Source: a bacterium
GTDB taxonomy: Bacteria; SAR324; NAC60-12
Direction: 5' to 3'
Assembly (NCBI GenBank): GCA_965233585.1
Contig: CBDDTI010000437.1
Location: 1 to 42,259 of the forward strand
Length of the DNA stretch: 42,259 nucleotides
Shown here: piece after piece, positions 10,700-29,087 of the stretch
Numbering within the stretch: the stretch's first letter is position 1
Layout: every line of letters starts with the position of its first letter
Translations under genes and position numbers: made by a program
Notes under the pieces: generated by a model
Database searches by the model: none
Seen by the model: the letters and a program-made list of their open reading frames with translations, nothing else
What the model was told of the DNA's origin: nothing

Positions 10700-13600
10700 G
10701 ACAGGGGGGATAAGTGGGATCGGCGAAACCATCGCCATCATTATACCACTCAGCATACCCATCCCATAAACCGAAATTGTCATCTCCATTCTTCACATCG
10801 TCACTTCCCACTAAAATCCCCCAAACACACTAAAACCCATGCTCAGAACACTCATTACACAAAAAAACAGAAAATATGGAAGGAAAGGTTCCGACCTTAC
10901 TCCAATAAAAAACAAAAAAATTCACGCCATTTCAGAATCAATAAAATACTGAGACAAAGGTTGGGTAGTCTCCATGCCAATGTAATAATCGACTATAAAA
11001 CTTCAGTAGAATTTCAAATTGACCCGGGTGCAGTAGTGTCAATTTTAAATGAAAATACCCTTCACCAACTTTTGAGATCCCATCCTCGCGCGGTTCGCCC
11101 CTTAGAAAATTATCGACCCCTAAGAATAACAGATTATAGCAACAACACAATATCCACCGTAACCCCACACACCCTCGCGTTCATGATTGGGGACCATCCC
11201 CAATCAACATTAGTCCATTGGCCCTTTTATGTAGTAAGATCAGGTGACAACCTGATTGGATTGGACCTGCTTGCACATTTGAAGGCCAACCTCATTTGGA
11301 AGGGACAACAAATGATGTTAGTTAGCAAAGACTTCATGATTAGAAATGTATTCAGAACCTTGCACAAAGACAAGGCCTTCGAATCCAACATCAACATTGT
11401 CCACTCCATCCCTACAAAAGACACACAATTACCACCTGAATTAAGAAATCCTAGTGACCCCTTGGTCCCCAATAATAATACAGACAAGATAGATACCGAA
11501 GTTGACATGGATGAGGTGGTGCTGGAGCGGCTGGCAAACCTTACTACCGCGCCTTCACCCGATTGGACCCACGGGATCCTTAAGCAAGGCCTCCCGAAAC
11601 AAATTTCCGATAGGCTGATAGCATTTTTCACGCAGGACTATGCTAAACTGGTGCCCAGGGATGAGTTTGACCCGGGTTGTTTGAATCCAGACATCTACAT
11701 GATCGAAGATTTTGGAGCAACAGGTCCCCCAGTTAGAAGCAAGGTCATACCTCTGCACGGTGAAATGAGGGATAGGCTGAAACGAATAATTGATATTTAT
11801 ATTGAGAGGGGTTTAATGACCCGGGGAATAAGCCCGTATGCCTCCCCTTTATTCCTTGTTAAGAAAAATCCTTTGCCTGGACAGCCAATCAGAGATAGGA
11901 TGGTTGCCAATTACAAGGCATTGAACAAAACACTGAATCCTTTGGCCTATCCAAACCAAGATATCCAGAGCATTTTCACAAAAATTGGCAATGCAAAACC
12001 CGTGCTGTTTTCAAGTTTGGATTTAACATCAGCTTTTACTTCGGTACAAATCAAACCAGGGTCAAAGGCCATGATGCAATCCAGTGTCATCACGGACTTT
12101 GGTCAATTTCACATGACACGATTAGGTATGGGTATTTCCAGTAGTCCAGCCATCTTTTCCATAGTCATGGACAAAATTTTGACAAACATACCACCACCCA
12201 GATTCAAAAACTATCCCGCACAACATTCCTTTGTAGTTTGGTATCAAGATGATGTGTGCATCTTCACCACACAAGCTGAAGACATGTCCCAGAATGACCT
12301 CTATCAGCTACACTTATTGCAAATTAATGTGATCTTGGCAAAGATTTCAGCTGCGGGCTTAAAAATTAATCCTGCAAAGTGCAAATTCTTTCGCACAGAA
12401 ATTCCTCTGTTAGGACGACTGATCACTAGGCAAGGGTTCACACCTCTTGAGAAGCACATCCAACAGCTGAAAGATTTTCCAAGACCATCTACAGTGAAAG
12501 GAATCCAGCAGTTTATGGGGACATGCAATTTTCTGCGGCAGCACATCCCTAACTTTAGTCAAAAAATTGCACCTCTGACTGAGTTGTTACGGAAGAACAC
12601 CCCTTTTATTTGGGCAGATACCCAAGACAAGGCTTTCAAAACCCTGAAAAATGATATCTGTAATACCAGCCAGACCACCTATCCTGATTTTGAGGAAAAC
12701 CTTTATTTGTATGTTGATGGTAGTAATGTTGCTGTTGGAAATGTCCTCCTGCAGATTAAGACTATACCAGATGCTGAATTTAATAAAGCAAAAGGGCTCA
12801 AGGATGATGAACTTGACCAACCCATCCTTCTTCAACAAGGCAAAAATGTGCCTCAAGTAACAGATGTGTGGGGAAATCAGGTTGATTCCATCAAATTTGA
12901 TCCAAACAGGCACTTGATCATGCCCATTGCCTTTGGCAGTAAAGCACTGACACCTAGTCAGAAACAGTATTCAACCATCAAGCTCGAGGCCTTGGCCATT
13001 GTCACTGCATTCCATCAACATCAAGATATTCTGAAGGGTGCCAAAAGGATAGTTCTTGTCAGCGATTCCTCTCCTCTTCTATACATTCTGAAAGGAAGCA
13101 CAAAAATTAGTTTGCTAGAAAGGTGGTCACTATATCTGCAATCTTTCAATTACAACATCTGTGTTAGTCATGTTTCAGGGACACACAACACAATTGCAGA
13201 TATGCTTTCCCGCAGATCCGCATTCATGGTTACTGACAAACCCTCTGATAACTTTAATACCAAAACAGCCTTTGAGTTTAAGTCACCCTACCCTATTGGC
13301 TCGGTCATTACCTATAGACACCTTCGAGAAGCTTTGGAAAAAGATCCTTCTTTAGTTCAACCCATAAATAACATTGAATCGGCTGAAATGAGCCCTGTTA
13401 GCAAAAGCTCTGCAAATCCTTTGGAACCTGCTGATCCGATACCAAAAGCACAAATTGCAAAGGTCAACTCACCTTTGTCTCTAGTGGAGGAATTGAAACC
13501 CTTAGTTTCAAGCTCAGCCATTGTAGCCGCGCAAGCCAGTGATGATTTTTGCAATCATATAAGCTCAAATCTGGAAAAACATCCCAAATTTATAAAAAGC

Positions 13601-15013
13601 GACAAAGGTGAATTGCTCTTCAAGGCAAACATTCAGGGTCAGGACCTGCAAGTGCTGGTGGTTCCAGAAACTTTGCAACCCATCATCATGGCTTATTACC
13701 ATGCTGATAACCACTGTGGGGGCAACTCCTTGGCAGGAGTTCTAACCTCCAGGTTCTACTGGCCTAATATCCGAAAAGACTGCTCAGACTTTGTGAGTGG
13801 CTGTCACCTATGTGCCATCTTTCGGGCACAGAAAAATCCAGAAACTGAGCTGGGTAAAACCTCTGACTACATTCCCAGATTGAAAACATATTGCTGGTCT
13901 GTAGATATTTTAGAAGGGTTCCCTGTGTTTGGACCATACAATGGACAAATTCTGGCAGTGGCTGAGCATTACACTCATTTCAGAGTCTTAAGACCACTAA
14001 AGAAATCTCATGCCACAGAAATTGCAAAAATCTTGGAGGAGGTCATTACCACCTTTGCACCCTCCATGTTCATTTCGGATAGGGGAACTAACCTTTTGAT
14101 GAGTCAACAAGTCAAAGAACTCTTTACTAAATATAATATCAAGGGCCATGTCACTGTACCTTACAGCGGCAAGTCTCATGGTATGATTGAAGCTTTGCAC
14201 AAAAGTGTCAGTGCTTTAATCCGGATCTGTGTGGAAGAACAACAGACTGCGAACTGGCCCAGCCTAATTCCATATATTCAACTGACCTTGAATCAAAAGA
14301 AGTTGTGCTACTTTGACAACTATTCTCCTTTTGAGTTGATGTTTGGCATGGAACCAATTCGTAGTCGTCGAGACCCACCCACCGAATCTGAGATATTTCG
14401 GACTCCTGACAACACCATGGCTGCCTGGCACAAAACAAACAGTGCCATCCAGGCCACCATTGAGAAACATTTCCGGAAATTGCAAAGACAGTATGACACT
14501 CTAACACTCAAACCTCGCCCTTTCCCGGTAGGCAGCTTTGTATATCTGCGTGATTTGCGACCAATCCCAAATAAAAAAATCAAGGCTAGGTATTTTCAGC
14601 AACCCCTCAGAGTAATGGAAGAGAGGCCACAATCATTATTGCTGAAATCCTTTGATGGGAGGTTGCTAAAAGTACACAAAGATAATTGTAAACGGGCACA
14701 TCCCAGAGGAGAAAAAGCCTTTGGCTCACTGCCCACTAGAGTGAAAATGGCATTGGGAACTCCATTTGCCTATAGTGACCTAAAAGATCTCATGGATAAG
14801 GAACAAATACCGGAATTTTTTAAAGATAAAGACACCATACCCCCACCTGAACCAATACAAACTAGGTCCAGGACGAAAAAAACGAACCACCCGGGGGTAA
14901 AGGTTACCGTACCGACAGACATCCCACCCATGGTGGATATAAACCACTTAGATGATCCCGAGCCTATGCAAGACATAGCACCACCAATGCTAGAGACCAT
15001 CTTTGAGGAATGA
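10700..15013 (+). CDS. pol: Pol polyprotein (protease, RT, RNase H, integrase), in frame with gag
   Basis: Protease IDPGAVVSIL. RT SPYASPLFLV, LDLTSAF, YQDD, KCKF. RNase H VDGS, EALA, ADMLSR. Integrase HADNH..CHLC, VDIL, SDRG, IEALH. The frame is open from 10700, straight after the gag TGA. Confidence 0.95.
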   Translation, partial: DRGDKWDRRNHRHHYTTQHTHPINRNCHLHSSHRHFPLKSPKHTKTHAQNTHYTKKQKIWKERFRPYSNKKQKNSRHFRINKILRQRLGSLHANVIIDYKTSVEFQIDPGAVVSILNENTLHQLLRSHPRAVRPLENYRPLRITDYSNNTISTVTPHTLAFMIGDHPQSTLVHWPFYVVRSGDNLIGLDLLAHLKANLIWKGQQMMLVSKDFMIRNVFRTLHKDKAFESNINIVHSIPTKDTQLPPELRNPSDPLVPNNNTDKIDTEVDMDEVVLERLANLTTAPSPDWTHGILKQGLPKQISDRLIAFFTQDYAKLVPRDEFDPGCLNPDIYMIEDFGATGPPVRSKVIPLHGEMRDRLKRIIDIYIERGLMTRGISPYASPLFLVKKNPLPGQPIRDRMVANYKALNKTLNPLAYPNQDIQSIFTKIGNAKPVLFSSLDLTSAFTSVQIKPGSKAMMQSSVITDFGQFHMTRLGMGISSSPAIFSIVMDKILTNIPPPRFKNYPAQHSFVVWYQDDVCIFTTQAEDMSQNDLYQLHLLQINVILAKISAAGLKINPAKCKFFRTEIPLLGRLITRQGFTPLEKHIQQLKDFPRPSTVKGIQQFMGTCNFLRQHIPNFSQKIAPLTELLRKNTPFIWADTQDKAFKTLKNDICNTSQTTYPDFEENLYLYVDGSNVAVGNVLLQIKTIPDAEFNKAKGLKDDELDQPILLQQGKNVPQVTDVWGNQVDSIKFDPNRHLIMPIAFGSKALTPSQKQYSTIKLEALAIVTAFHQHQDILKGAKRIVLVSDSSPLLYILKGSTKISLLERWSLYLQSFNYNICVSHVSGTHNTIADMLSRRSAFMVTDKPSDNFNTKTAFEFKSPYPIGSVITYRHLREALEKDPSLVQPINNIESAEMSPVSKSSANPLEPADPIPKAQIAKVNSPLSLVEELKPLVSSSAIVAAQASDDFCNHISSNLEKHPKFIKSDKGELLFKANIQGQDLQVLVVPETLQPIIMAYYHADNHCGGNSLAGVLTSRFYWPNIRKDCSDFVSGCHLCAIFRAQKNPETELGKTSDYIPRLKTYCWSVDILEGFPVFGPYNGQILAVAEHYTHFRVLRPLKKSHATEIAKILEEVITTFAPSMFISDRGTNLLMSQQVKELFTKYNIKGHVTVPYSGKSHGMIEALHKSVSALIRICVEEQQTANWPSLIPYIQLTLNQKKLCYFDNYSPFELMFGMEPIRSRRDPPTESEIFRTPDNTMAAWHKTNSAIQATIEKHFRKLQRQYDTLTLKPRPFPVGSFVYLRDLRPIPNKKIKARYFQQPLRVMEERPQSLLLKSFDGRLLKVHKDNCKRAHPRGEKAFGSLPTRVKMALGTPFAYSDLKDLMDKEQIPEFFKDKDTIPPPEPIQTRSRTKKTNHPGVKVTVPTDIPPMVDINHLDDPEPMQDIAPPMLETIFEE

Positions 15014-15047
15014 TTTTTGGAAAGGAGCTAATCATTTTATTTGCAGG

Positions 15048-16376
15048 ATGATATGCATAATCAGTCTTATCATAGGACTTCACATAGATGTCACCTGCTC
15101 AACCACTAACCATACCACATCTGGCAAACCCAGCACGGACATCCCTGATGACAACCTCTGCCCAACATCTTTCATTTACTCCTTCCAGGAACTCCAGGAG
15201 GCAATCGAGTTAAAAATGGTACATGTCGACCTTCTGTTGAGCCAAACAACCAAGGTACCAGATGGTATCACAATTAGCCACCCTGAATACCAGTACATTG
15301 TTGAAAAGCGATTTCTCACCTTTCAACAAGCACATGACTTTTGCCTGCCATTGGAAGTACCTATTGTTGAAATCCACTCAGACAAGGATCTAAATTTCTA
15401 CCATTCCACTTTTCCGGATATTACACAAACTTGGTTAGACACTGGATACTCTGGTAAAACTAAAAAACTAACATTCGCCTCAGGGAAACCTGTTCCAGCT
15501 CTTCTTAAAGACACACTCACCATGGACCGAAACTTAGTCTCCACCAAACCTTGCACCGTCATTAACTTAAGTACCGGAAAAATAACACAAGTTTATTGTT
15601 CAGCGGCCTACCCCACCATATGTGCAATTCCCAGCCATCAGATAGTGGCAATTAAACTGGTAAAACAACTTAGCACTCTCATTCAGAAACTGTTGCGCAA
15701 ATTTGTTAAAACGGAATTTCTCAGGCCTACCTTCCCGTCCAACACCTGCCCCAACACCACAGACTATGTTTACGACACCTTACACCTGAAACACCCCTTT
15801 TCATACTTACTCCAAACTTCACGAATTGATCCTTACACCCTCTATACTTCGCTACTTGCCTTAAAACAACAGCTTCTAACCTTCTTTTCCTTATCCAGCG
15901 AACCTACCATAAACTTGGCTGACCTATTACAATCTTTCTCTCTGCTTCCACCTAACCATGACATTTTCCAAGTAGATAATTTGATTTGTATCTGTCCAAC
16001 TAACTCCTCCTCAACAGTAAGTACTCCAGATACTGTCACCATAACGGAGGATAACACCACCACACTTCCTAATGACCTCCCTACCCAAGGTTATGGAGAG
16101 AATACCTTTTATGACAACATCACGATCAATGATGATGGCACCATTTCCTTTGGTAATGTTACCACCATCTTGAATCAATTTGGTTTCTCAACCCCAGATT
16201 TGATAAATCTGGTTTGCACAGTCATTGTTGCAATTGTGAGCCTCCTGACAGGTGCACAAATCATCATCCTATGGAAAAGACAGGCCAGGAACAACCAGGA
16301 GCCACCCATCCCTATTCACCAAATTCGAAGTCATGAACCCCTACTTCAAAATCAACCGATTATCAGCATAAGATGA
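15048..16376 (+). CDS. Env-like type I membrane glycoprotein with a C-type lectin-like domain
   Basis: Signal peptide MICIISLIIGLHIDVTC after a splice acceptor TTTTATTTGCAG (AG 15045-15046). CTLD-like pattern LTFQQAHDFC..IVEIHS..TWLD..CTVIN..VYCS..TIC. Multiple N-x-S/T sites and a C-terminal TM LVCTVIVAIVSLLTGAQIIILW. Confidence 0.8.
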   Translation: MICIISLIIGLHIDVTCSTTNHTTSGKPSTDIPDDNLCPTSFIYSFQELQEAIELKMVHVDLLLSQTTKVPDGITISHPEYQYIVEKRFLTFQQAHDFCLPLEVPIVEIHSDKDLNFYHSTFPDITQTWLDTGYSGKTKKLTFASGKPVPALLKDTLTMDRNLVSTKPCTVINLSTGKITQVYCSAAYPTICAIPSHQIVAIKLVKQLSTLIQKLLRKFVKTEFLRPTFPSNTCPNTTDYVYDTLHLKHPFSYLLQTSRIDPYTLYTSLLALKQQLLTFFSLSSEPTINLADLLQSFSLLPPNHDIFQVDNLICICPTNSSSTVSTPDTVTITEDNTTTLPNDLPTQGYGENTFYDNITINDDGTISFGNVTTILNQFGFSTPDLINLVCTVIVAIVSLLTGAQIIILWKRQARNNQEPPIPIHQIRSHEPLLQNQPIISIR

Positions 16377-16476
16377 CCAAAGCCTTCCCACCCAAAGCCC
16401 TTGTTTGATAAGCGTGGAAAACATCATATTCACCTCCGGCAATACTTGTCATATACCTATGTCCTTACCTAAATGC

Positions 16477-16989
16477 TCAAAAATCAACCCTCACCAGTTG
16501 CTCCTGTCCAACTTCCTCATCCTGATGGAGATTACCCATGGGAATCTCCTCAACCAACTGTTCCACTGGCCTGAAGACACACCAACACAGCCAATTCTTC
16601 ATTTCACAGATGATCTTGACACCATAGAGACGTATGAAGAGTAAAACCCATAGGGACCACGGCACCATGACCAAAGTCAATGTCTCCCAGCTTCTTCCTT
16701 GCAACCATGAGACACACTCTTCTTCCTTGTGGTATTCTTCTGTAGGTGGGCATGCTTTCATCTCCAACGAATCTTTCCCCTCACTGGTGAGATTTCTGTT
16801 CTTGCACCAGTCAGCCAACACCTGCCCACAGCTGCCCCAATCTCTAGAGATTATTTCTGCCAGCTCAACTGCGAAGTTTTCACATACCAGTTGACCAACC
16901 ACCATGGGGACAAACAGCAATCCTGGAAAGAAAAACATCATTAACATGAATGGGATGCTTACCCAATTCATACCGAGTAAGAATTTCAT
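16477..16989 (-). CDS. Antisense 170-aa predicted membrane protein
   Basis: ATG start, hydrophobic N-terminus, Cys-spaced middle domain, TM-like TLTLVMVPWSLWVLLFI, and a Cys-containing then acidic tail. Confidence 0.5.
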   Translation of the reverse strand: MKFLLGMNWVSIPFMLMMFFFPGLLFVPMVVGQLVCENFAVELAEIISRDWGSCGQVLADWCKNRNLTSEGKDSLEMKACPPTEEYHKEEECVSWLQGRSWETLTLVMVPWSLWVLLFIRLYGVKIICEMKNWLCWCVFRPVEQLVEEIPMGNLHQDEEVGQEQLVRVDF

Positions 16990-17083
16990 GATCTAGTTTT
17001 CTGTGCTCTCTCTGCAACACACCACTCCTGAATAACTTCCATTTCTAATGCAATCATGAAGGAGTAAATTATTCTACATTTAG

Positions 17084-17500
17084 CTACTTGATTAATGGAC
17101 GGCTTCTAGTCCTGTTGCTTGGATAAAAGCATAAAAGAGATCCTTCCTTGTAAATATATTGCATCAAGTTTTGCATCAGTCTATGCACTGTCAATACATC
17201 TTCATCTAAATTAGGCAAAACCCAAATGGATTTTGTCTGGTCTAAAATTTCGGACTTTATGTCTTCTTCCGAAGAATTTATAGATGTTAATTCGTTTTTT
17301 AGCGTGATGAAACAAGGTTGGCCTTTTGACAAAGTCAATTGGTTGTAATTGTAATGTAATCCAATAGACACTACCCCAATTTCCCATTCTCTATTTTTCA
17401 AGTCTAAACTTTGTGGGAATAAATTGGTAAAAGAATTCAAAGTATTTTTGTCATCCGTATCGGAACTAGCGTTTGACACGCAATAAATATTATAATCCAT
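17084..17500 (-). pseudogene. Minor capsid protein (penton), N-terminal part, 3'-truncated
   Basis: SNAS...NTLNSFTNLFPQSLDL...WEIGVVSI matches the typical Polinton penton N-terminus. The ORF runs into gypsy-derived sequence. Confidence 0.75.
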
Positions 17501-17506
17501 TCCGCG

Positions 17507-18595
17507 TTATTGTGGCATATCAACTATGTCTTTTTCGTATGTCCAACTAGGGTTTTTATACCCTTTCCATTTTATTAAAGCCATTTTTTCTCCGGTTTTT
17601 TTATCTTTTTTTGTCCGAAGAATTTTTTCGATGGCAAATACTTCCGGCTCATCTACGGGTGTAAGTTCACTCTCATAAAAATTTCCTTCCAAAGTTTCAT
17701 CCTGTTCTAAAGTCTCCAACTCATAAGTGGGTTTTGGCAAACGTGTAGAAATTGATTTTATTTTAAAAATTTCTTCTTTGAATTGCGGTGTAAATCCTCT
17801 GTCAAATTTTCCCTTCATAATGCTAATACGCACAGTTTGGCCGATTTTGTATTTTGGTTTCATTCTTTTAATCTTTGAATAAACCAATTCTTGTTTTCTT
17901 CTAATGTGATAGGTTTTTCCGGGGAGTTCTGCTTCAGCGGGTGTCATTCCAATCATGCGATGTTTACGATTGTTGTAGGTATGGACAAGAAATGGTAACG
18001 CGTCAATGTACCTGTCAGTATTTTCGTGAGTCATGTATTTGAACAACAGGTTTTTTAAAGTTCGGTTAAATCTTTCCACAAAAGGGGCGTGCACAAAATT
18101 ATTGCTGTGTAACAAAAGAATGTTATTGTTTTTGCAGTAGGCTTGAAATAATTTATTCTTAATTTCCGCTCCTTTATCGGCTAAAATTCTACGCGGAAAT
18201 TGTTTTGCTCTTTTCATAATAGATTCAAACCCTTCCATAAATGTTTTTGCCGTTTTATTAATAAGTGGTTCTACAAAGGCGAATCGTGTAAAAATATCGA
18301 TGGCTGTCAAAAGGTATCTATTAGAATCATTTTGTTCAGCCAAATTTCCTAAATCTATAAGGTCAATTTGAAACTGATACCGTTTCCGATAAGCAAATGT
18401 TGGATTTCTCGGTCTGGGAAATTTAGCCTGTTTGTGTAATGTGTAAGAGTCTGTTCCTTTTAGCCACTCCTCGATTAACGTCAGAGGGATTTTTTTCCCA
18501 TAATAATGATAAATTAGCGCGGGAGACGCAAAAGCTATTGGTGAACCCGGTTTCGCGTATTCTTTTAAAAAAGTCTCTTTCGTTGTTATCGACAT
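17507..18595 (-). CDS. int: Retroviral-like (rve) integrase with C-terminal chromodomain
   Basis: DDE motifs QIDLID, ADKGAE, VERFNRTLK. C-terminal FAIEKIL...LIKWKGY..SW. Confidence 0.95.
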   Translation of the reverse strand: MSITTKETFLKEYAKPGSPIAFASPALIYHYYGKKIPLTLIEEWLKGTDSYTLHKQAKFPRPRNPTFAYRKRYQFQIDLIDLGNLAEQNDSNRYLLTAIDIFTRFAFVEPLINKTAKTFMEGFESIMKRAKQFPRRILADKGAEIKNKLFQAYCKNNNILLLHSNNFVHAPFVERFNRTLKNLLFKYMTHENTDRYIDALPFLVHTYNNRKHRMIGMTPAEAELPGKTYHIRRKQELVYSKIKRMKPKYKIGQTVRISIMKGKFDRGFTPQFKEEIFKIKSISTRLPKPTYELETLEQDETLEGNFYESELTPVDEPEVFAIEKILRTKKDKKTGEKMALIKWKGYKNPSWTYEKDIVDMPQ

Positions 18596-18997
18596 TTAAA
18601 ACAGAGGTTCTTTAGAAATTTTGCGCCTTTTTTTCCTAGATTGCGTGATTGACGAGGATTTCCTTTTTTTGTTTGAATTTTGAGTTCGATAATCGTCGTT
18701 GCTATCGGCTTGTCGGGCAGCGTTAAGCAAAATACCTCGCGTAGCGGATTTCAAACGTTGTTTTGCTTTTCTGCCCACCGGTTGACCCTCCAAAGCTTCT
18801 ATTGCCGTTTCTACAGCCGCTCTTGTCGCTTCTTTCTTTAAAGCTTTTCCTACAGATTTTATCGGGGCGCTTTTAGCTACACGTCCAATAGTTTTTATCG
18901 TTGATTTCGCTACCGGCATTAATCCGCGAAAAATTCCGGAAAAAAGCGATCCAATTCCCGAACCTCGTTGCCAATGTAAACCGCTGTGGTAATTCAT
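18596..18997 (-). CDS. Basic virion core protein with amphipathic N-terminus (adenovirus pVI-like)
   Basis: QRGSGIGSLFSGIFRGLMP, the conserved Polinton Q.G.G motif followed by an amphipathic helix. Basic C-terminus. Confidence 0.75.
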   Translation of the reverse strand: MNYHSGLHWQRGSGIGSLFSGIFRGLMPVAKSTIKTIGRVAKSAPIKSVGKALKKEATRAAVETAIEALEGQPVGRKAKQRLKSATRGILLNAARQADSNDDYRTQNSNKKRKSSSITQSRKKRRKISKEPLF

Positions 18998-19006
18998 ATA
19001 TGTATT

Positions 19007-19765
19007 TTATTGATTTAGACTTTTACGACATCTGTACAACGACATAACACTGACGCCTAAAATGTGAGCCATATTTTTGACGCTTAAATACCTCAATTTG
19101 GATTCTTTTAAAAAGGCATAAGCGCATGCAGCTAATAAAGTTCTTGGAGCAAAAGAACTATTTTCATTTTTTTTTAATATTTGTTCAACGGACGTCATTT
19201 CTTGATAATTTAACTGCAGCGGCTGTAAAAAATATTCTTTCATATCTTTTGCCTTTATGTAATTGTCTAATTTATTCATGTCAGTCAAATCCCGTCTGTA
19301 TAATTTCATCCAACGCCACACTATCTTTGGATTAATGCCGACTTCTTGACACAAATGACTTATCGGGCGGGGAATTTTTTCTTTTATTAACCCCTGATAC
19401 AACGTCATTACCACCAATCCTTTAGCATCCATTTTAATTTTTCCGCCTTTTTGATAATGCCACGCTGCTATATCTGACCATAGATTTAAAATAACATTTG
19501 TAACATCATTATTTAAATGTAATTTATTACATAAAATTTTTAAAATATTTTTTTCTTTCTCTAAATGCTGGTTTTTTTGTTTAATTTCTTTATCAAATGT
19601 TTTTATTTTGTCCCATTCTGTTTCCAAATTTGATTTTGTTAAATTATAACAATATATTTTATCAATAACTAATCCACACTCGGTACACACCACGTCTCCT
19701 TGCCTGGTGTCTTCTACTGGATATTGATGATTGCATATTTTAGTATAATCTACTTTCTCGTGCAT
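19007..19765 (-). CDS. TFIIB: TFIIB-like transcription initiation factor
   Basis: Zn ribbon CNH...EDTRQGDVVCTECGLVID and a B-reader-like EWDKIKTF. Two cyclin-fold-like repeats: LCNKLHL...PRPISHLCQEVGI and PRTLLAACAY...SVKNMAHILGVSVMSL. Confidence 0.85.
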   Translation of the reverse strand: MHEKVDYTKICNHQYPVEDTRQGDVVCTECGLVIDKIYCYNLTKSNLETEWDKIKTFDKEIKQKNQHLEKEKNILKILCNKLHLNNDVTNVILNLWSDIAAWHYQKGGKIKMDAKGLVVMTLYQGLIKEKIPRPISHLCQEVGINPKIVWRWMKLYRRDLTDMNKLDNYIKAKDMKEYFLQPLQLNYQEMTSVEQILKKNENSSFAPRTLLAACAYAFLKESKLRYLSVKNMAHILGVSVMSLYRCRKSLNQ

Positions 19766-19821
19766 GATTTCGATGTTTATTGTATAGATATCAAAACTCG
19801 ACTAAATAAACATTATTCACA

Positions 19822-20364
19822 TCATTCAATTTTATATTTTTTTAATAATTTAATAATAATTTTTATTCCTTGTTTAGCATCTTCTTCGCTGGAGGCTCCA
19901 ATTATAACTATTTTTCCTGACGAAAATATTAAAGCTGAACATTTTTTTATTTTTAAAAATACGCCTGGGAATTTTTCTGGATCATATCTCTTAAGAATAA
20001 TTTCAAAATCTTTATTCGATTTTAAATGGTTGTATAATTTTAATAATTTAATCTCTTCTTTTGATTGATACAAACAAGTCATGTTTTCTACTTTAAATAT
20101 TTCAACAACAAATTCGTTACTTATAATAAATTTTAGTTCGTCTAATGCTTTCGCAATGTGTTCTGTAGAGGGGATTTTTGTAATGTTTACGTGAAAATGA
20201 CGATTTTGCTTTGTTTTGGTAAATATAATAAAGGAATATTTTTTTCTTATTACAACAAAATTATTATAACGTTTTATTGTATTATCAGTATTAAAAGAGA
20301 TTTCGTCGCTGTTGATAAGATGAACTTTACAACTAATTTTTACATTGCTGACCAACACTTCCAT
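19822..20364 (-). CDS. TBP: TATA-binding protein-like (180 aa)
   Basis: Two-repeat structure VSNVKIS / VENMTCL. The second repeat YDPEKFPGVFLK...ALIFSSGKIVIIGASSEED is canonical TBP. ATG at 20364. Confidence 0.92.
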   Translation of the reverse strand: MEVLVSNVKISCKVHLINSDEISFNTDNTIKRYNNFVVIRKKYSFIIFTKTKQNRHFHVNITKIPSTEHIAKALDELKFIISNEFVVEIFKVENMTCLYQSKEEIKLLKLYNHLKSNKDFEIILKRYDPEKFPGVFLKIKKCSALIFSSGKIVIIGASSEEDAKQGIKIIIKLLKKYKIE

Positions 20365-20370
20365 TTTGTT

Positions 20371-21714
20371 ATGGGCGTACCTGAAAAAAGTGGAATTGCC
20401 GGATTGGCCGTTGAACAAAACGACGGCACCGAAAGTGGTTTAGCGCTTCACTCACCGTTAGAAGTAGAAACGGGTTTATTAGATGGAGCTCACGTTATTT
20501 ACAATAGCGTGGCTTCTATTACCAACACCGGACCGGTCGAATTTCTTGTTCCTCGCGATAACGAATGCTCTTTTATACTGAATCAAACCAGACTTAGCGG
20601 CTATTTTGTAGTGACAAATGACGATGGTGAACAGGTAAAAAATGATACTAAAGCCACACTGGCTAATCATTTTGCCGCTTGTTTATTCAGCCAAGTAGAA
20701 GTATATTTAAACGGGGTCCAAGTAGCTGATTTAAGTTCAGCGGTCACTTATCCTTGGAGAATGTTCATACAATCATTTTTAAGTTACAATTCAGAGGTGA
20801 AAAAAACTTATCTGGCTGCTGAAGGGTATTATCCCGAAAATGCTGACGAAGTTGATACCATAAATCTTACAGCCGCCACACCTTCTTTGAATAAAAGAAA
20901 GCAGTTAATTATGGACGGTAAAAAAGTGTATTTTAATACGCGCTTAGCCGTTGATCTGTTTGACACCGACAGATTTTTACCCCCAAATGTGGATATCAAA
21001 ATCAAGCTGGTTAGATCCGCTGAAAAGTTTGGTTTGCTTCAAGATGCTGCGGCAGAAAAACCTTTTAAAATTGTTTTAAAAGATGTTAAACTACATATGA
21101 GAAAAGTGTTGCCCACATTATTGCTGAGAGAAAGTTTTAAAAACAAACTTTTAAAAGAACCGTGCTACCTACCTTTTAGCGCTACACGTTTAAGACATTA
21201 TGTTATTCCTCAAGGTGTGTCGTCCTTCAACATCGCTAATATCGCTAATGGTACTTTACCGAAACAAGTGTTTTTTGTGATGGTTCACAATCAAGCCATG
21301 TCACACGCCCCGGACAAAAACCCTTTCAACTTTCAACATTTTAATCTGTCTACTTTTAATTTAAAAAAGAACGGTCAATGCGTATTTCCCAGACCATTTC
21401 AACCTAATATAAACGAGGGGGACGCCATTGACTTGTATCGGCATTTATACGACAGTATTGGCATTTCGCACGGCAATCAATCCATCGGTTTAACGTATGA
21501 ACAATATTTAAAAGGAAGATTTTTTCTAGCGGCCGATTTAACACCGGATCAATGTAATTCGTTCCACGTGCATCCAGAAAATTACGGAAATTTAGATTTA
21601 GAATTGGCTTTTTCCGTAATAACTCCTCATCCTATATACGTCCTGGCTTTTTCTGTTTTCAACTCCGGCATCAAAATAGATCAATTCCAACAAGTTATAA
21701 AAGGAACAAATTAA
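20371..21714 (+). CDS. Major capsid protein (double jelly-roll, Polinton PY), 447 aa
   Basis: GPVEFLVP, LFSQVEVYLNG, TYPWR, PPNVDIKIKLVRS, NPFNFQHFN, DLTPD and GNLDLEL match the Polinton MCP. Likely ATG at 20371. Confidence 0.92.
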   Translation: MGVPEKSGIAGLAVEQNDGTESGLALHSPLEVETGLLDGAHVIYNSVASITNTGPVEFLVPRDNECSFILNQTRLSGYFVVTNDDGEQVKNDTKATLANHFAACLFSQVEVYLNGVQVADLSSAVTYPWRMFIQSFLSYNSEVKKTYLAAEGYYPENADEVDTINLTAATPSLNKRKQLIMDGKKVYFNTRLAVDLFDTDRFLPPNVDIKIKLVRSAEKFGLLQDAAAEKPFKIVLKDVKLHMRKVLPTLLLRESFKNKLLKEPCYLPFSATRLRHYVIPQGVSSFNIANIANGTLPKQVFFVMVHNQAMSHAPDKNPFNFQHFNLSTFNLKKNGQCVFPRPFQPNINEGDAIDLYRHLYDSIGISHGNQSIGLTYEQYLKGRFFLAADLTPDQCNSFHVHPENYGNLDLELAFSVITPHPIYVLAFSVFNSGIKIDQFQQVIKGTN

Positions 21715-21717
21715 ATC

Positions 21718-22200
21718 ATGGAAAACGGATTATCAAATATCTTTTTATCCAATTATATTCAACCAAGATGTAAATATTTCATCGGGGTTTTTTCAAGCGA
21801 TAATTTGCCGTCTGATTCGCTTAAGTTGCCTTGTTGCTTAATCACTAACTTATCAAAAAAAAATCAAAAAGGATCACATTTCATAGCGATGTATATTAAC
21901 GGAAAAAATCAACTCTATTATTTTGATTCATTCGGTTTTTTACCGCCGATATGGAATCGATCTTTAATGAAGTTCTTACGACCTTGGATAGAAAAAAACT
22001 CATTCAAAACAATTCTGTCTTACTCCATTCAGGATTTTCATTCATTGTTTTGCGGCTGGTACGTGACCGCTTTTTGTTTATCCGTGGGCAACAATTTAAT
22101 GTCTCCTCAACAATTTGTTAAAATATTTGTAAAAAAACCCAAAATAAAAAATGATGAAATTGTAACTCATTTTATAAAAAAACTTGAAAATAAACGATGA
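21718..22200 (+). CDS. Adenain-family cysteine protease (virion maturation)
   Basis: FIGVFSSD, GSHF (His), YFDSFG (Asp), IQ....FCG (Gln/Cys). Confidence 0.95.
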   Translation: MENGLSNIFLSNYIQPRCKYFIGVFSSDNLPSDSLKLPCCLITNLSKKNQKGSHFIAMYINGKNQLYYFDSFGFLPPIWNRSLMKFLRPWIEKNSFKTILSYSIQDFHSLFCGWYVTAFCLSVGNNLMSPQQFVKIFVKKPKIKNDEIVTHFIKKLENKR

Positions 22201-22217
22201 TATATATTTTACTTTTA

Positions 22218-23063
22218 TTATAATTTTGGGTATTTTCCCGGAAAAAGTAATTTTTTTTTAACAGCATCTGCATCAGTTTTTGAAAGTTTTTTTGATTTAG
22301 ATCTAGTTTGTACGGGAGAAATAGTAAAAGTTTTCTTTTTTGCACCTCCTGATCCTGTTTTAAGGGATGACATTGAAACTGAAGGAGATTTTGATGCTTG
22401 TGAAGAGACCGAGGCTATATCTTTACCGATTTTTTCTGTGTCAAATATAGACAATTCTTTCATATGATCTCTTACAAGGTGTTTGCCGAATTGCGCATCG
22501 TCAACATACTGCTTCCCGCATGCGCTAAAAGGACAAACTATTTTGCCGTCTGAATTTTTTTGTGTCAAAGCCTTTATAATAGGCGAATTTCGCCATTCTG
22601 GCACGTCAGAACTTAAAGTATCGTCCTTGCTTTTTGGTTTTGAAGCGGTATAAAACAAGTCTGGATCGGGTTCTCTTTCCATAATGGGAGTAGTGGGTGA
22701 AAACTGAGCGGTATTTTCTTTTTGTTGGGGAGTTTGAGCGGTTGTTGATCTTGAAATAGATTGGTACGTGCGACCCGCACTGCTATCGATTTGTACTGGC
22801 GGCATAACATTCGATATATTATCAGAACCAAAACGATACAATTTATCGCCGCTTTGATTCATTTTTTGCCTGTCTTGTAAATTTTTAAAATTAATGGCAT
22901 TTTCAATGTAATTGGTCGTATTTGGTTTTTCATTCATAGAAATAAGTTCTTTTTTTGTTTCATTATCTTCTATATTTTTTATTAAAGAATGATATAGCCT
23001 TTTGGGGACTAAAAACATAGAGTATATTTCATCATTTGTTTTTCTTTTCACGCCTGAACTCAT
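22218..23063 (-). CDS. Polinton hypothetical protein with a C2H2 zinc finger and basic tail
   Basis: ATG at 23063 just after the PW stop. N-terminal MFLVP motif typical of the ORF following PW. Zinc finger CPFSACGKQY....FGKHLVRDH. Confidence 0.75.
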   Translation of the reverse strand: MSSGVKRKTNDEIYSMFLVPKRLYHSLIKNIEDNETKKELISMNEKPNTTNYIENAINFKNLQDRQKMNQSGDKLYRFGSDNISNVMPPVQIDSSAGRTYQSISRSTTAQTPQQKENTAQFSPTTPIMEREPDPDLFYTASKPKSKDDTLSSDVPEWRNSPIIKALTQKNSDGKIVCPFSACGKQYVDDAQFGKHLVRDHMKELSIFDTEKIGKDIASVSSQASKSPSVSMSSLKTGSGGAKKKTFTISPVQTRSKSKKLSKTDADAVKKKLLFPGKYPKL

Positions 23064-23067
23064 CCTT

Positions 23068-23442
23068 TTAACGACGACGTTGTAAGCTTTTTTTTGCAAT
23101 AATTTGAGCTAAAATAGGGACGATAATGCTGGCAATTGTTGATAAAGTTCCTAAAATTCCGCCCCTTTGTAGTATTATTCTTTTTTTTGAAATGTCGGAA
23201 GAGCGACGAGGCGGCGTGGCAAGACGTCTAAACTCCCCTAAATGAGCTCTTATTTTTTTCTGAAGTCGTGTTCGCACTTCGCCATGTAAGGGCAATTCAC
23301 CGTTCAAAACGTAATGTAAAATACGACAAAGCAATTCAACGCCGCGATCGTCCAAATAATTTAAAAAATTTGCGCAATCTTGATGTTTTAATTTTTTTAT
23401 TGCATTAAAAAGCGAACTAGCTTTTTCTAATTTTTTTGACAT
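23068..23442 (-). CDS. Polinton PW-like basic core protein
   Basis: LC.I...VLNGELPL and KKRIILQRGGILG followed by a hydrophobic tail; located downstream of the ATPase. Confidence 0.8.
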   Translation of the reverse strand: MSKKLEKASSLFNAIKKLKHQDCANFLNYLDDRGVELLCRILHYVLNGELPLHGEVRTRLQKKIRAHLGEFRRLATPPRRSSDISKKRIILQRGGILGTLSTIASIIVPILAQIIAKKSLQRRR

Positions 23443-23489
23443 TTTAACAGTAATTGTTTTTAATTTTTCTTAAATAGATATGAAATTTT

Positions 23490-24185
23490 TTAAACAGTAA
23501 CGTAGGCTTTCATTAATCCTTCATAAGAAAAGATGTTACTTCGAATTCTGACTTTATCGTCTTGCTGTTGATGGAAATCTAGAAGAAGATATCCGTGACT
23601 TCGGCCGTTAACTGCTTCTCTATATGCTTTATTTAAAATTCCAACACGACCGGGAAAAATTTGTTTTGCCAAATGTGTGATGGCGCTTCTGTCCCGTGGA
23701 TTGTTAAAAAGGATCATGTATTGCGTATTTATGCTCAATGTCCGTAAATCGCCTTTTTTGTCAAATAAATTTTGGCAAAGAAAAACGGTGAAACAATTGT
23801 AATGATGAGTCAAAACCGTAAAAAAATGTTTTAATATTTGCCCAACATCGTCTAAATAATCGTCAAAAACAATCAATTTGGGCATTTTTCTCGGATATAA
23901 TTCTAAAATATCTTTCAACTCTTCAATTGAATTTGGAATATTTTTGAATTTACGAAAAGACGGAAATTGCGTGTCAGAACCTTTGCCCTCGTTCATGTCA
24001 TCTTCCATGTACTGATATGCTTTTTGCGGCTCCTTGTAAAACAACAACATTGTTTCAGGCGGAGTTGCAAAATACTCGTGTCGACGAAGCACTAAATGTT
24101 TTAACCACGTTGTTTTTCCGCTTGATGTTGGACCGACAACCAACATGTTGGACGGAATATTAAACCTCAAATCAAAACCGTTCAT
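23490..24185 (-). CDS. A32/FtsK-like DNA packaging ATPase
   Basis: Walker A GPTSSGKT, Walker B LIVFDD, QNLF, RTLSINTQY...NPRD, GYLLLD. Confidence 0.95.
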   Translation of the reverse strand: MNGFDLRFNIPSNMLVVGPTSSGKTTWLKHLVLRRHEYFATPPETMLLFYKEPQKAYQYMEDDMNEGKGSDTQFPSFRKFKNIPNSIEELKDILELYPRKMPKLIVFDDYLDDVGQILKHFFTVLTHHYNCFTVFLCQNLFDKKGDLRTLSINTQYMILFNNPRDRSAITHLAKQIFPGRVGILNKAYREAVNGRSHGYLLLDFHQQQDDKVRIRSNIFSYEGLMKAYVTV

Positions 24186-24242
24186 TTTTTTAATTTTAAA
24201 AAAGAAACTACAAAATTTTCTTTTAAATAAAAGTAATGATTT

Positions 24243-27200
24243 TTATTTACAAATTTGGCATTTAGACATTTTGTTGTTAACAATAAGGCAATTTCCTAGC
24301 GATAAAGTGTGACATCCACAATTTAAAACATATCTTTTAGAATCCATTGCCGACAACGCAATTTTTCTTTGAAAACACGTTCGGATTTTGTGATTTTTTG
24401 ATCTTAAATTTTTAAAAGATTTGTAAATTACAACAGTTTGCTTTAAGCACTTTTTGTAATCTGCATAAGTTAATTGCTTTTTTATACTAGATTTTTTTAA
24501 ACCTTTGCATACTTTTTTCTCATCAGTTTTGTTTTTGTCCAAAAAATCGACTATTTTCATTGAATAACATTTTGGACGTAAGCCTATAAAATCAGTAATA
24601 GCCGCTCTACCTTTTAATTCATCTTTGAAATAAAAAAGTTGATTGGCTTTACTGTTGTCAAAAAGTGGATGTTGTTTAGGGTACTTTGAAAAATCAAACA
24701 TGTGTTTCAATCTCTTCATTTCCCTTTCCAAATTGTTGCATGTAACTTTTAAAAGAAAAGAATCCGTGTCCGAAAAACACAAAGACACATTGTCTTTGCC
24801 GAAATGTTTTTGAATGGTGTCATAGTATGATCTGTACATGAACAACTTGGACAACTCCAGAATGGAAAATCCGACGGCTAAAGGCTTTCTAAGCTCTATC
24901 ATTGCCGGCTTCTTGTTGACAGCCACCAAATTCTCATTAATAATTTGAAAATTGTTGATGTGTTGACCAAGACTGGCTTTCCTCAAGCTTTTTTCATCTC
25001 CACAAAGCACCACTTCGATGTAATTTCGAACATTTTCTGAAAAATATAAAATTAAATAAATATTTTATAAAGAATACAACATTTTTTATAAAAATTCATT
25101 ATAAAGTGTGTAGGAGTTTGGAGATTTATTTTTTAAAAACTTCCTAAAACCATGTGGCAATTTTCAAAACAAACTTTCAAAACAAAAAAAAAGAAAGAGG
25201 ACAGTGATGATGATGATGATGATGATGATGAAGAGAGGATATATGAGGTTGAAGGATGAGGAGGACGACGACGAGCAGTGGCTGCTGAAGGAGGAGAAGG
25301 AGGAGAAAAAGAACCGGAGACCGGGGGGCGTAATCGGACGGATCCGGTCGGCCGTGGCCGGCATTTTCCGCCGCCTGATGCTCCGCCGCCCGCTGCCGCC
25401 TCCGCCACCGCCAGCGCCGCTGCCGTTGCATTCTCTGTTAGCGTTGCTGTGCTTGCCGCCAGCGGCGCTGGCGGCGGGAGGCGGCAGCGGTCGCGCTGTC
25501 CGAGGCCTTCAAAACGAAAATTTTATTGCGCCTGACGTGCCCACCGGCATTCTTGTTGATCTCCCCACCAACACCAACGTCCCCACCGAGGTGCCCACCG
25601 AGGTCCCTACCGAGGTCCCCACCGAGTCCCCATCGAGGTGCTCACCGAGGCCCCCACCGAGTCCCCCATCGAGGTGCCTCATCGAGGCCCCCACCGAGTC
25701 CCCCATCGAGGTGCTCATCGAGGCCCCCACCGAGTCCCCCATCGAGATGCTCATCGAGGCCCCCACCGAGTCCCCCATCGAAATGCTCATCGAGGCCCCC
25801 ATTGAAGTCCCCACCGCTGAAATTCCCTCCAATGTCCCCATCGATGTGCTCATTGACGTCCCCGTCCCCATCGAGGCGCCCACCGAGACCCCCACCGAGT
25901 TCCCCACCGAGGCGTTTGTCGAATTTCCCATCGAGATCCCCACCGACAACCCCATCGAGGCTCCCATCCCCATTAGACTCCCCGCTGACGACAGATCTTT
26001 TGCCGCCAGACGTCGGGCGACGGAGATTGTCCGCCTGGCTAAAATCCGGGCGGCGGAAAACCGGATGGCGGATTTTGACGGGGAGGTCATCACCGTGGAG
26101 GCTGAGGTTCACGCGCCTCCCGACAACATTGAAGATGCGAATGAGCGTGTGGTGTGTACTGCCAACACATTTTGCACTAAATATTGGCAGTACCACCACA
26201 CGCTTGTGCAAATATAAAAATACAAAAAAGATTTAAATCCGGGTATTTACTTACCGATAAACTTTCCAAAAGTAGAGTTGGCAAAAAGCTTAAAAAGTCG
26301 AAGTTCAAAATCGTTGCGGGCGTTTGATCGTAGCATCGTGACCTTTTCAATAAACTCTTTTAAAAAAGCTTTTTGCCGAAACTTCACAGCTCTTCTTATC
26401 CTCAACAGTTTCATGCCTTTTTTCAAATAATATTGTAGATTTTCCAGATGCACCACGTACTTTTTTCGATCATAAAAAGTGCTCAACAGTTTCTTGCTTC
26501 GGTATCTTTTGTTCTTATAATCTCGAGGGTTAAGATGTTTTAGTAAACGACGATTATAAGGAGACAGATGTTTGTAAGAAACCGTGTCTGTATACGGAGC
26601 CAGCGGAAATTGATCATGTGTCTGTAAATATTTTACCGTTTATCAAAATGCAAAACGTGTTAAAAAGATCAGATTTACCGGGTGAAGATGAGGAGGATAA
26701 TGCAAATCAACTTCGAATGCGTACCCGGTCTCGTCTTGAGAAGGAATCTTGATAATATCTTTGGCAGTCCATTTTTCAAGATCTTTTTTTGCAACCCACT
26801 CGAAATCAGAAACTGGCAATTTTAAAGTTTCCATGCTCCCGTACAAGTTGTTTGCTAAAAAGTCACCGATTTAAAATAAATAGATTAATCAAACGATGCA
26901 GTATAAAATTACCGTCAATGTAAAGTAAATGATCGCCACTTTTTCTCGGATTGCTGTTTCCTTTTGCATAACGCTGAGAGATAAAGCTTTGTCCGCCTCT
27001 GATACCCTTTGTGAAAAAGTGCTCCATTTCAGGATCGGAATAGATATCCAGAGATCCTAGAGGTTTGGAAGATTCACCCGCGAGGTTATCTTTTGTTGTT
27101 GTAGCTCGTTCAGAATTTTGATAGAACATAAGCATAACATCAAAACTTAGTCCAGGAATTCCTAAATTAAACGAAATAAATTTCATATTTAAACTTTATA

Positions 27201-29037: not shown

Positions 29038-29087
29038 TTCCAAAGCTTACTTGAATTTTTTATATACAACAAAATAAGTCCTTTAAA

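Follow-up and report, generated by a model that had tools for sequence, protein, structure and literature searches.

Virus-encoded homologs of both basal transcription factors, TBP and TFIIB, occur in giant viruses (Nucleocytoviricota), which, together with poxviruses, provide the closest homologous systems to the gene pair that is the subject of this work, namely, adjacent genes for a TBP-like protein (vTBP) and a TFIIB-like protein (vTFIIB) in a Polinton copy located in contig CBDDTI010000437.1 (GenBank assembly GCA_965233585.1, deposited as a bacterium of the SAR324 lineage). The whole stretch of DNA that was analyzed, positions 1 to 42,259 of this contig, is hereafter called the window. 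Giant viruses transcribe their genes in the cytoplasm or in a factory and possess their own multisubunit RNA polymerase (RNAP), which such factors serve, whereas the ~20-kb elements considered here encode none, and the identity between vTBP and the giant-virus TBPs is only 10-20%. In poxviruses, an atypical TBP/TFIIB-like pair, the VITF-3 heterodimer, recognizes promoters (PMC12917281).

The closest functional analog is the late-gene complex of herpesviruses, that is, nuclear DNA viruses that lack a polymerase and encode their own TBP-like protein. Small DNA viruses and transposons that have no polymerase are generally held to depend on the basal factors of the host, to which they add, at most, activators or, in the case of herpesviruses, a TBP mimic. 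The TBP mimics of beta- and gammaherpesviruses, ORF24, BcRF1 and UL87, direct the host RNA polymerase II (Pol II) to late promoters (PMC6541308, PMC12529657, PMC4922670). However, these mimics show no sequence relationship to vTBP, and the fold matches of BcRF1 and UL87 are weak (E 2.9e-4 and 1.1e-3, respectively; TM 0.37-0.40) and fall short of homology. Furthermore, the herpesvirus complex consists of six viral subunits, includes no TFIIB homolog and carries its TBP mimic within a much larger protein.

The TBP and TFB of archaea and the TBP and TFIIB of eukaryotes share the domain plan of both proteins with the pair in the window, and the ternary structures of TBP, TFIIB or TFB and DNA (1vol, 1ais, 1c9b and 1d3u) are among the fold matches of both models described below. 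Compared with these cellular pairs, vTBP is strongly asymmetric, whereas vTFIIB lacks most or all of the B-reader and B-linker. Cellular TBP paralogs work with TFIIB at special promoter classes, and one of these, TRF2, has lost the intercalating phenylalanines that vTBP keeps. The TRF2/TBPL1-type paralogs, which are diverged TBP-fold proteins (PMC4422821), are host genes and, unlike vTBP, are not element-borne. In the literature that was searched, outside of which lie most subscription journals, we found no TBP and TFIIB pair described for Polintons, Mavericks, adintoviruses or Polinton-like viruses. The adintovirus paper of Starrett et al. (2021; PMC8502044) carries the gene label "TBP" in a figure legend, for the map of a related MELD virus, so that a TBP gene in this kind of virus has been seen before. 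However, this is a label only: the text of the paper contains no discussion of it and no mention of TFIIB, and "TBP", "TATA" and "TFIIB" do not occur in the one supplementary file searched. Passages on viral TBP or TFIIB in other papers concern giant viruses or mirusvirus-like viruses, not Polintons (10.1101/2022.05.25.493380, PMC11502894, PMC10675990).

Within the window, the vTFIIB gene (19007-19765, minus strand) and the vTBP gene (19822-20364, minus strand) are open reading frames (ORFs) without a single internal stop, separated by a spacer of 56 nt between the vTBP stop and the vTFIIB start (19766-19821, minus strand). They belong to a gene block in which the protease and major capsid protein (MCP) genes diverge from a TBP-TFIIB-core-integrase array, with intergenic spacers of 6, 56, 9, 0 and 6 nt from the MCP-TBP boundary onward. 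The start codons of the divergent vTBP and MCP genes are 6 nt apart (20365-20370), the MCP start at 20371 being fixed by homologs that begin with MG[VL]P; it follows that the promoter of each of these genes lies inside the coding sequence of the other. The first-pass annotation of this locus, made without database searches, had described intact TBP-like and TFIIB-like ORFs in tandem between the core and integrase genes and the MCP gene, within an AT-rich, compact block, and both the coordinates and the gene arrangement hold.

vTBP is 180 amino acids (aa) long when read from its ATG and 198 aa long if an upstream TTG is used; the equivalent of the ATG, in the form of ME or MD, is the start in all 21 aligned relatives (a family alignment of 22 rows). 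The Pfam profile PF00352 matches the protein with 68.1 bits (cut-off 22.9) over residues 108-195 of the 198-aa form, which correspond to repeat 2 only; there is no PF00352 match in repeat 1, so that sequence profiles recognize one of the two repeats. In a sequence search of the PDB, the archaeal TBPs come up with E 7e-19 to 7.5e-18 and the eukaryotic TBPs with 1e-14 to 1e-10, and both matched stretches fall within query residues 122-178, that is, again in repeat 2. The AlphaFold model built with the 22 family sequences (pLDDT 90.8) contains, by DSSP, the elements S1-S5 plus H2 twice, and all 44 PDB folds that match it at E <= 0.001 are TBPs (TM 0.58-0.74). These matches extend over ~195 columns, the full length of the protein, which implies that repeat 1 is also a TBP repeat, and the model and the fold search agree on two tandem TBP-fold repeats in one saddle. 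Repeat 1 is modeled without the short helix H1, and it has an insertion before the last strand (S5). Judged by profile matches and predicted fold, vTBP is a real two-repeat TBP homolog, asymmetric in that a canonical repeat 2 is combined with a repeat 1 of TBP fold and family-specific sequence, much as the first-pass annotation had it.

We take F36, F48, F132 and F147 of vTBP to be the canonical DNA-kinking phenylalanines, and N7 and N94 to be the central asparagines. In the 111 sequences of the asymmetric type that are described below, F48 is present in 108, F132 in 111, F147 in 110, F or Y at position 36 in 109, N7 in 105 and N94 in 108, so that the asymmetric TBPs retain the four phenylalanines and the two asparagines, with the equivalence of F36 depending on the alignment. 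This dependence arises because F36 aligns with the canonical phenylalanine in a 15-row L-INS-i alignment and falls in a column of L, V or A in an automatic alignment of 143 rows. F36 and F48 are the phenylalanines of the NNF and IIF motifs that had been singled out as candidate intercalating residues, and, subject to the same reservation on F36, this proposal survives: both are invariant in the 22-row alignment. The stirrup motif of repeat 2, Y-x-P-E-x-F-P-G, is kept as well. Two further residues, K9 and N60, do not vary among diverse members of the asymmetric type (45 of 45), and the column of N60 contains V or I in canonical TBPs. Both positions presumably fall on DNA-facing valines of repeat 1, with reference to the yeast TBP-DNA contacts. 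These two substitutions are the sole basis here on which vTBP might be credited with an altered specificity for the TATA box. Among the members of the family, repeat 1 is no less conserved than repeat 2 (mean majority fraction 0.746 vs 0.681, or 0.764 for repeat 2 minus its variable loop). The description of repeat 1 as highly diverged is therefore correct with respect to canonical TBPs and does not apply inside the family, where repeat 1, taken whole, is the better conserved half.

vTFIIB, a 252-aa protein, consists of an N-terminal zinc ribbon (C11, H13, C27, C30), a short, variable linker, two cyclin folds and a C-terminal helix-turn-helix. The Pfam Zn_Ribbon_TF profile scores 28.4 bits on the window protein, slightly below the cut-off of 29, and matches at E <= 0.01 in 28 of the 28 members of the vTFIIB family; PF00382 matches at the same threshold in 7 of the 28 and is not found in vTFIIB of the window itself. 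A profile of the family aligns with human TFIIB (E 8.9e-8) over the ribbon and over residues 107-286, which span both cyclin folds. In the structure model (pLDDT 73.5), the ribbon and a low-confidence linker are followed by ten helices that form two sets of five, and the matches ranked 1-37 among the PDB folds are all chains of TFIIB, TFB or Brf; the low TM-scores (about 0.3) reflect a different placement of the domains. The model, the fold matches and the human TFIIB alignment are consistent in showing two cyclin-like repeats. In the 28-row family alignment, H13, C27 and C30 are invariant, C11 is at least 90% conserved, and the sequence of the helix-turn-helix, LGVSVMSLYRC, is nearly invariant, so that the four-ligand ribbon is a feature of the family; the cysteines and the histidine of the ribbon are also invariant in the distant TFIIBs described below. 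On the strength of profiles and modeling, vTFIIB is a real TFIIB homolog with a ribbon and two cyclin folds. The profile and structure searches that the first-pass annotation had proposed thus bear out its assignment of both proteins.

Distant relatives with their DNA context come from a scan of bacterial and archaeal species genomes with an 18-row alignment of the TBP sub-clade, which yielded 32 confirmed loci; a scan of prokaryotic genomes with the 22-row family alignment found no relative. Archaeal bins account for 27 of the 32 loci, in which only repeat 2 is matched, at 28-42% identity, and these are ordinary archaeal TBPs. The other five (L001-L005; NZ_JBEIET010000157.1 and JAIXOW010000415.1, 277.1, 294.1 and 041.1, all from environmental assemblies) encode full-length TBPs of the asymmetric type, and the contigs, 3.9-23.7 kb in size, are binned with bacteria. 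As a separate observation, the bins that hold these Polinton-like contigs, with their eukaryote-type genes, are metagenome-assembled bacterial genomes used as species representatives, and a single bin contains four variants of the element.

In all five loci, a TFIIB homolog directly follows TBP, with an overlap of the ORFs by 34-43 nt, and matches PF00382 above the cut-off. The order of the genes that come after TFIIB is also the same in all five, namely, a homolog of the basic "core" protein, an integrase combining rve and chromodomain, and a gene for a protein of 605-666 aa where complete. The MCP gene lies directly upstream of TBP, in divergent orientation, in all four loci that reach that far, with a spacer of 42-52 nt (L002-L005), and is followed by the protease gene and, further on, by PolB. 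A comparison of the window with L005 shows how distant these relatives are: the identity is 33% for MCP (2e-81), 43% for the integrase (4e-98), 32% for TBP (6e-24), 27% for TFIIB (6e-15), 38% for the core-like protein (5e-18), 38% for the protease (4e-19) and 33% for the ATPase (2.8e-39). The TFIIB family of the window and that of L001-L005 match each other with 99.4% probability (E 3.9e-21). Absence of the pair from sister elements, which the first-pass annotation had regarded as damaging to its proposal, is not what we observe, given that the TBP-TFIIB-core-integrase order is kept in five of the five loci.

The ratios of nonsynonymous to synonymous substitution rates (dN/dS, Nei-Gojobori) can be read from L002 and L003, the sole unsaturated pair; for the other pairs, dS exceeds 1 and the ratios for TBP and TFIIB are 0.16-0.48. 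Between L002 and L003, dN/dS is 0.139 for TBP (dS 0.57), 0.133 for TFIIB (dS 0.67), 0.075 for the core-like gene (dS 0.59) and 0.046 for the integrase (dS 0.85), which demonstrates purifying selection in this sister lineage, as distinct from the copy in the window. The TBP-TFIIB pair is under purifying selection, is old and is an integral part of the Polinton block.

The asymmetric TBPs extend far beyond these loci. A search of 1.84 billion representative proteins with the family profile retrieved 3087 proteins at E <= 0.001, of which 531 had E <= 1e-10. The best 150 matches comprise 4 known family members, 107 new proteins of the asymmetric type, in which the profile is matched in a single full-length stretch, and 39 proteins of the canonical symmetric type, which are matched in two or more stretches via repeat 2 only. 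A quick maximum likelihood tree covers 143 rows. Besides vTBP of the window and 11 members of its family, these are the 99 proteins of the single-stretch type that are 150-240 aa long, 8 of the 107 having been left out as fragments or over-long sequences, and, from the 39 proteins with multiple stretches, the 32 that are 170-225 aa long. In this tree, the 111 asymmetric rows split from the 32 canonical rows with an SH-aLRT support of 100, and the family of the window falls into a 13-row clade, starred in the tree, deep within the asymmetric side. The asymmetric clade holds at least 99 full-length clusters at 50% identity. With this support of 100 for the split, vTBP is not nested among the canonical TBPs, a placement within host clades being another outcome that the first-pass annotation had considered adverse.

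Closer relatives are numerous. A word-indexed protein search detected 36 TBP relatives (50-93% identity), 21 of them 178-200 aa long, 48 TFIIB relatives (39-98% identity), 28 of them with at least 239 aa, and 80 MCP relatives. The 90%-identity clusters contain 23 (TBP), 38 (TFIIB) and 70 (MCP) members, which indicates that the element in the window belongs to a multi-copy family. Exact contig sizes provide an indirect view of linkage. A size of 8156 is common to relatives of TBP (55% identity to the window), TFIIB (49%) and MCP (74%); TBP and TFIIB share the sizes 10894, 6759 and 14469, MCP and TBP share 5974 and 11868, and MCP and TFIIB share 11734, 5966, 21519 and 6860. Six further coincidences, at 44432, 52646, 36934, 9941, 6453 and 10811, come via cluster members. 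We roughly estimate that lists of this size would yield, by chance, considerably less than one exact coincidence, and this suggests, indirectly, that TBP, TFIIB and MCP co-occur down to 54% identity for MCP and 40% for TFIIB.

No gene for an RNAP subunit is found in these elements. RNAP domains are absent from the 27 scanned ORFs among the 33 ORFs of at least 100 aa in the window, as the first-pass annotation had noted for the visible element, and from the 15 ORFs of L005 and 7 further ORFs of L004, elements of ~20 kb. On balance, we lean toward the interpretation that the vTBP-vTFIIB pair nucleates transcription initiation on the element's own promoters and brings in the host Pol II, thus being the promoter-recognition module of a Polinton lineage. 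In the mechanism we envisage, vTBP would bind and bend a TATA-like element in the promoters of the Polinton via its conventional saddle. The cyclin core of vTFIIB would then clamp the canonical C-terminal half of vTBP together with the flanking DNA, using the C-terminal helix-turn-helix, and the zinc ribbon would dock on a cellular RNAP. Pol II is the most likely candidate given that the element has no polymerase gene and that its genes code for proteins. The promoters served might be of the late class, as suggested in the first-pass annotation. In cellular TBP, the repeat 1 half is contacted by TFIIA and by negative regulators. Rebuilding of this half in vTBP would free the module from host control of the TFIID type and could also change the half-site preference.

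Several results weigh against a host-directed promoter-recognition module of this kind, the first and principal one being the linker of vTFIIB. The gap between the ribbon and the core amounts to 31 profile positions in the vTFIIB family of the window, compared with 65 residues in human TFIIB, and the stretch concerned, rich in indels and with a pLDDT below 50 in the model, is where the alignment is least conserved. In the L001-L005 TFIIBs, there is no B-reader or B-linker, profile position 40 being paired with human residue 50 where the ribbon match ends and with residue 106 where the core match starts. Thus, the B-reader/B-linker region is halved in the family of the window and absent from that of L001-L005. 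The B-reader and B-linker help to open DNA and to set the start site. Because the part that enters the active center of the polymerase is lacking, vTFIIB may not replace host TFIIB in DNA opening, and because most or all of the B-reader and B-linker is missing, the protein is not simply a "TFIIB". By sequence comparison, this loss of the linker truly sets the protein apart and is what speaks most strongly against viewing it as a plain "private TFIIB".

The other adverse points concern the promoters, the state of the genes and the tree. The motif TATTTAAR has 12 matches vs 8.9 expected, a number that is reached in 13 of 100 shuffles. Hexamer enrichment was assessed in upstream regions of 60 nt, 43 from genes of L002, L004 and L005 and 12 from genes of the window, loci that are not independent, and none of the 1207 tests survives correction (best p 1.6e-4). 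Among the 36 close relatives of vTBP, 15 are shortened forms, as are 20 among the 48 relatives of vTFIIB, and the pair in the window may itself be a relic because the copy is truncated and its PolB is in pieces. Finally, the tree was made by a quick method from unlabeled sequences, with a canonical set that consists of the best profile scorers and a root of our own choosing.

Some features of the upstream regions are recorded here as leads. The string CAGTT, which is initiator-like, occurs 12-13 nt before the TBP ATG in all four of L002-L005, the hexamer not being significant after correction. TATA-like strings upstream of TBP in the same four loci are located, by our own count, at -35, -31, -32 and -22. 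The divergent MCP-TBP spacers involved are at 9946-9997 (L002), 889-940 (L003), 9950-10000 (L004) and 9956-9997 (L005). There are hints in these features that the TBP-TFIIB unit itself is under an ordinary, host-type promoter. A scan for bacterial-type promoters and terminators stayed at the chance level, as expected for a eukaryotic element.

Among the alternatives to recruitment of host Pol II, the one that fares best, and still is rather unlikely, is that the pair adapts the Pol II-like polymerase of a helper giant virus to the promoters of an element that replicates in the giant-virus factory, in the style of virophages and Polinton-like viruses. Such a relationship is suggested by language-model look-alikes of both proteins, which belong mostly to viral-labeled clusters, Nucleocytoviricota being the commonest label, by the best viral fold matches of vTBP, which are giant-virus TBPs, and by the origin of L001-L005 from environmental assemblies. 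However, the taxon labels of the atlas rest on few members, without alignment, and the identity of vTBP to the giant-virus TBPs is as low as stated above. Moreover, the window copy has integrated into a eukaryotic chromosome, next to long terminal repeat (LTR) retrotransposons, and belongs to a multi-copy family (the MCP cluster with 70 and the TFIIB cluster with 38 members), and the chromodomain integrase points to a nuclear life style.

It is also improbable that the two proteins act as decoys by occupying TATA promoters of the host or by sequestering its factors' partners, causing shut-off or competition without productive initiation. A non-productive TFIIB mimic could be expected to lack the B-reader and B-linker, and the rebuilt repeat 1 of vTBP is the side used by host regulators. 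However, a decoy would need neither the ribbon nor a co-inherited, matched partner, whereas the polymerase-docking zinc ribbon is kept in all 28 family members and its cysteines and histidine are invariant in L001-L005; besides, an endogenous multi-copy element gains little from host shut-off.

Still less probable, to the point of being a distant prospect, is a role outside transcription, in which a DNA-bending TBP fold and a cyclin protein similar to TFIIB and ORC6 would mark the origin or the termini for protein-primed replication or packaging. The L005 TFIIB weakly matches the second cyclin-like domain of ORC6 (E 0.0053, below the cut-off), and the pair adjoins the basic core-like protein and the integrase. 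However, at every level of comparison, both proteins match transcription factors best, and we know of no role of a TFIIB-type ribbon in origin binding. A recent neutral capture of host TBP and TFIIB genes that are functionless in the element, as might be read from the adintovirus preprint that puts "TBP" among "homologs of host proteins" (10.1101/697771), and which the first-pass annotation had named as an outcome that would undo its proposal, is hardly credible and already contradicted by a repeat 1 that is invisible to Pfam, a repeat 2 that scores better with archaeal than with eukaryotic TBPs, the 111-row clade apart from canonical TBPs, conserved synteny at 27-33% identity and a dN/dS of about 0.13.

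The Polinton copy that carries the pair is visible over ~12.8 kb (17084-29900), has a GC content of 0.29-0.38 and tightly packed genes, and is truncated on the left. The MCP (20371-21714, plus strand), of the double jelly-roll type characteristic of Polintons and Mavericks, has 80 homologs, including an "F54H12.2-like" protein at 30% identity, in addition to the L005 MCP. The window MCP itself has no significant match in Pfam, PHROGs or PDB sequence searches, its identity resting on the homologs and on L005, and two of the distant homologs (P0355 and P0358) match PF21738, DJR-like_dom, above the cut-off. It is followed by a putative adenain-like cysteine protease (21718-22200, plus strand), for which the Pfam evidence is weak (Peptidase_C5 E 0.031, below the cut-off, in the window and 0.0083 in L005) and which is 38% identical to the L005 protease. 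On the other side of the pair, the basic 133-aa protein that the first-pass annotation had called the core protein (18596-18997, minus strand) adjoins vTFIIB, is 38% identical to orf126 of L005 and occupies the same position in all five loci. Next to it, the integrase (17507-18595, minus strand; 43% identity to that of L005) combines an rve domain (35.4 bits, cut-off 32.6) with a C-terminal chromodomain (22.9 bits, cut-off 25.1). The last gene on this side (17084-17500, minus strand) retains the N-terminal 138 aa of a protein of 666 aa in L005 (BLASTP match to residues 19-87 of orf666, E 2.8e-9) and marks the truncation point: left of about 17084, retrotransposon sequence begins, and left of about 17050, the GC content rises from 0.35 to 0.44.

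To the right of the protease, on the minus strand, there are a 281-aa ORF (22218-23063) with a sub-threshold DUF4729 match (E 0.088), a C2H2-like motif seen by eye in the translation and no L005 match; a 124-aa ORF (23068-23442) homologous to orf115 of L005 (BLASTP E 5.6e-9); and a packaging ATPase of the A32/FtsK type (23490-24185; 33% identity to the L005 ATPase, E 2.8e-39), for which Pox_A32 scores 17.6 bits in the window and 31.5 bits in L005 (cut-off 22.8). The protein-primed PolB is in four pieces, all on the minus strand. The C-terminal piece (24243-24902) is 43% identical to orf193 of L005 (E 2.5e-49), and the remainder (26863-29037) comprises three pieces in alternating frames, 27838-29037, 27189-27731 and 26863-27186, that match residues 221-590, 614-777 and 798-840 of the L005 PolB (E 3e-35, 2e-33 and 3e-4, respectively). 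Between them lies an insert with a GC content of 0.55 (24903-26862) that includes a 12-nt tandem repeat (25558-25969) translatable as PTE/PIE repeats. Direct Pfam, PHROGs and PDB searches with the window pieces gave no significant polymerase match (E 0.075), and their identity rests on L005, whose PolB matches DNA_pol_B_2 with E 6.9e-10. The piece 27838-29037 also contains, at residues 332-383, an endonuclease VII-like zinc domain (Pfam E 1.1e-5, above the cut-off; PHROGs E 3.8e-7). In L002, L004 and L005 (for example, at 1735-5976 of L005), the C-terminal third of PolB is likewise in separate ORFs (orf165 and orf193), each preceded by a T-rich run that ends in CAG and resembles a splice acceptor. 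Given these splits and the acceptor-like CAG, the PolB of this lineage may contain introns, and some of the breaks in the window may be introns rather than damage. At the right edge of the AT-rich element, a 251-aa C2H2 zinc-finger protein (29088-29843, minus strand) with weak, sub-cut-off Pfam zinc-finger matches is a putative member of the element. The zinc-finger proteins of the window element and of L005 (16258-17469; C2H2 in Pfam below the cut-off) might be further transcription regulators; no similarity was detected between those of the window and that of L005.

The element thus has the protein-primed PolB (recognized via L005 and not in one open frame here), rve integrase, double jelly-roll MCP, ATPase and putative protease of a Polinton. 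A minor capsid (penton) protein was not identified in it, no terminal inverted repeats or target-site duplication were found, none of the inverted repeats linking 16000-17200 with 29000-36000, and no Rfam family reaches the gathering score. Because the left end is truncated at about 17084, the missing repeats indicate an incomplete copy and not a family devoid of repeats. What the first-pass annotation had taken for a ~20-kb integrating virus is, in the window, a truncated, partly decayed Polinton copy and not an intact virus of that size.

The DNA around this copy is repetitive. A nest of LTR retrotransposon sequence of the Ty3/gypsy type (6695-16161) abuts the truncated end of the Polinton and includes a pol ORF of 1276 aa (11183-15013) with reverse transcriptase, RNase H and integrase zinc domains, direct repeats that are 99% identical (9362-9657 and 15866-16161), and an inverted, partial second copy (6695-9361), the three arms being 99-100% identical. 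The retrotransposon/Polinton block is flanked by two segments, 2627-6033 and 30544-35728, that are 70-80% identical, in the same orientation and in permuted order; each contains a secreted-looking ORF rich in Ser and Thr, an acidic poly-Asp ORF and a self-complementary 53-nt array (3667-4143 and 35230-35728). These segments may be host genes or another repeat family, and because of them the right border of the Polinton is uncertain. In the GC-rich right end of the window, a 14-nt satellite with a unit close to TGCCGCTACACCAC is present in about 50 or more copies (41220-42040).

A Polinton lineage with matched TBP and TFIIB homologs in a conserved block beside the capsid gene would depart from this reliance of small elements on host factors, and would show that an integrating virus of 15-25 kb may possess both of the proteins by which the start site of a polymerase is specified. 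A broader scenario, which we put forward tentatively as possible rather than probable, is that an asymmetric vTBP and a reader-less vTFIIB are an ancient, co-inherited hallmark of a large Polinton branch, forming a self-contained minimal initiation system with its own promoter grammar that bypasses the TFIID/TFIIA control of the host and hands host Pol II to viral genes. Such a system would stand as a further kind of TBP/TFIIB system, new with respect to those of archaea, eukaryotes and giant viruses. In practical terms, the relatives of the element sit as contaminant contigs in bacterial genome bins. Proteins this small (about 180 and 210-250 aa) would make it testable how little of TFIIB suffices to recruit a polymerase, what purpose the TFIIA-facing half of TBP serves, and by what means endogenous viruses evade or exploit the promoter control of the host. 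It has been argued that several groups of eukaryotic DNA viruses descend from Polintons. The vTBP/vTFIIB system may be related to the origin of the basal factors of giant viruses, and the pair would then bear on where the transcription factors of those viruses come from.

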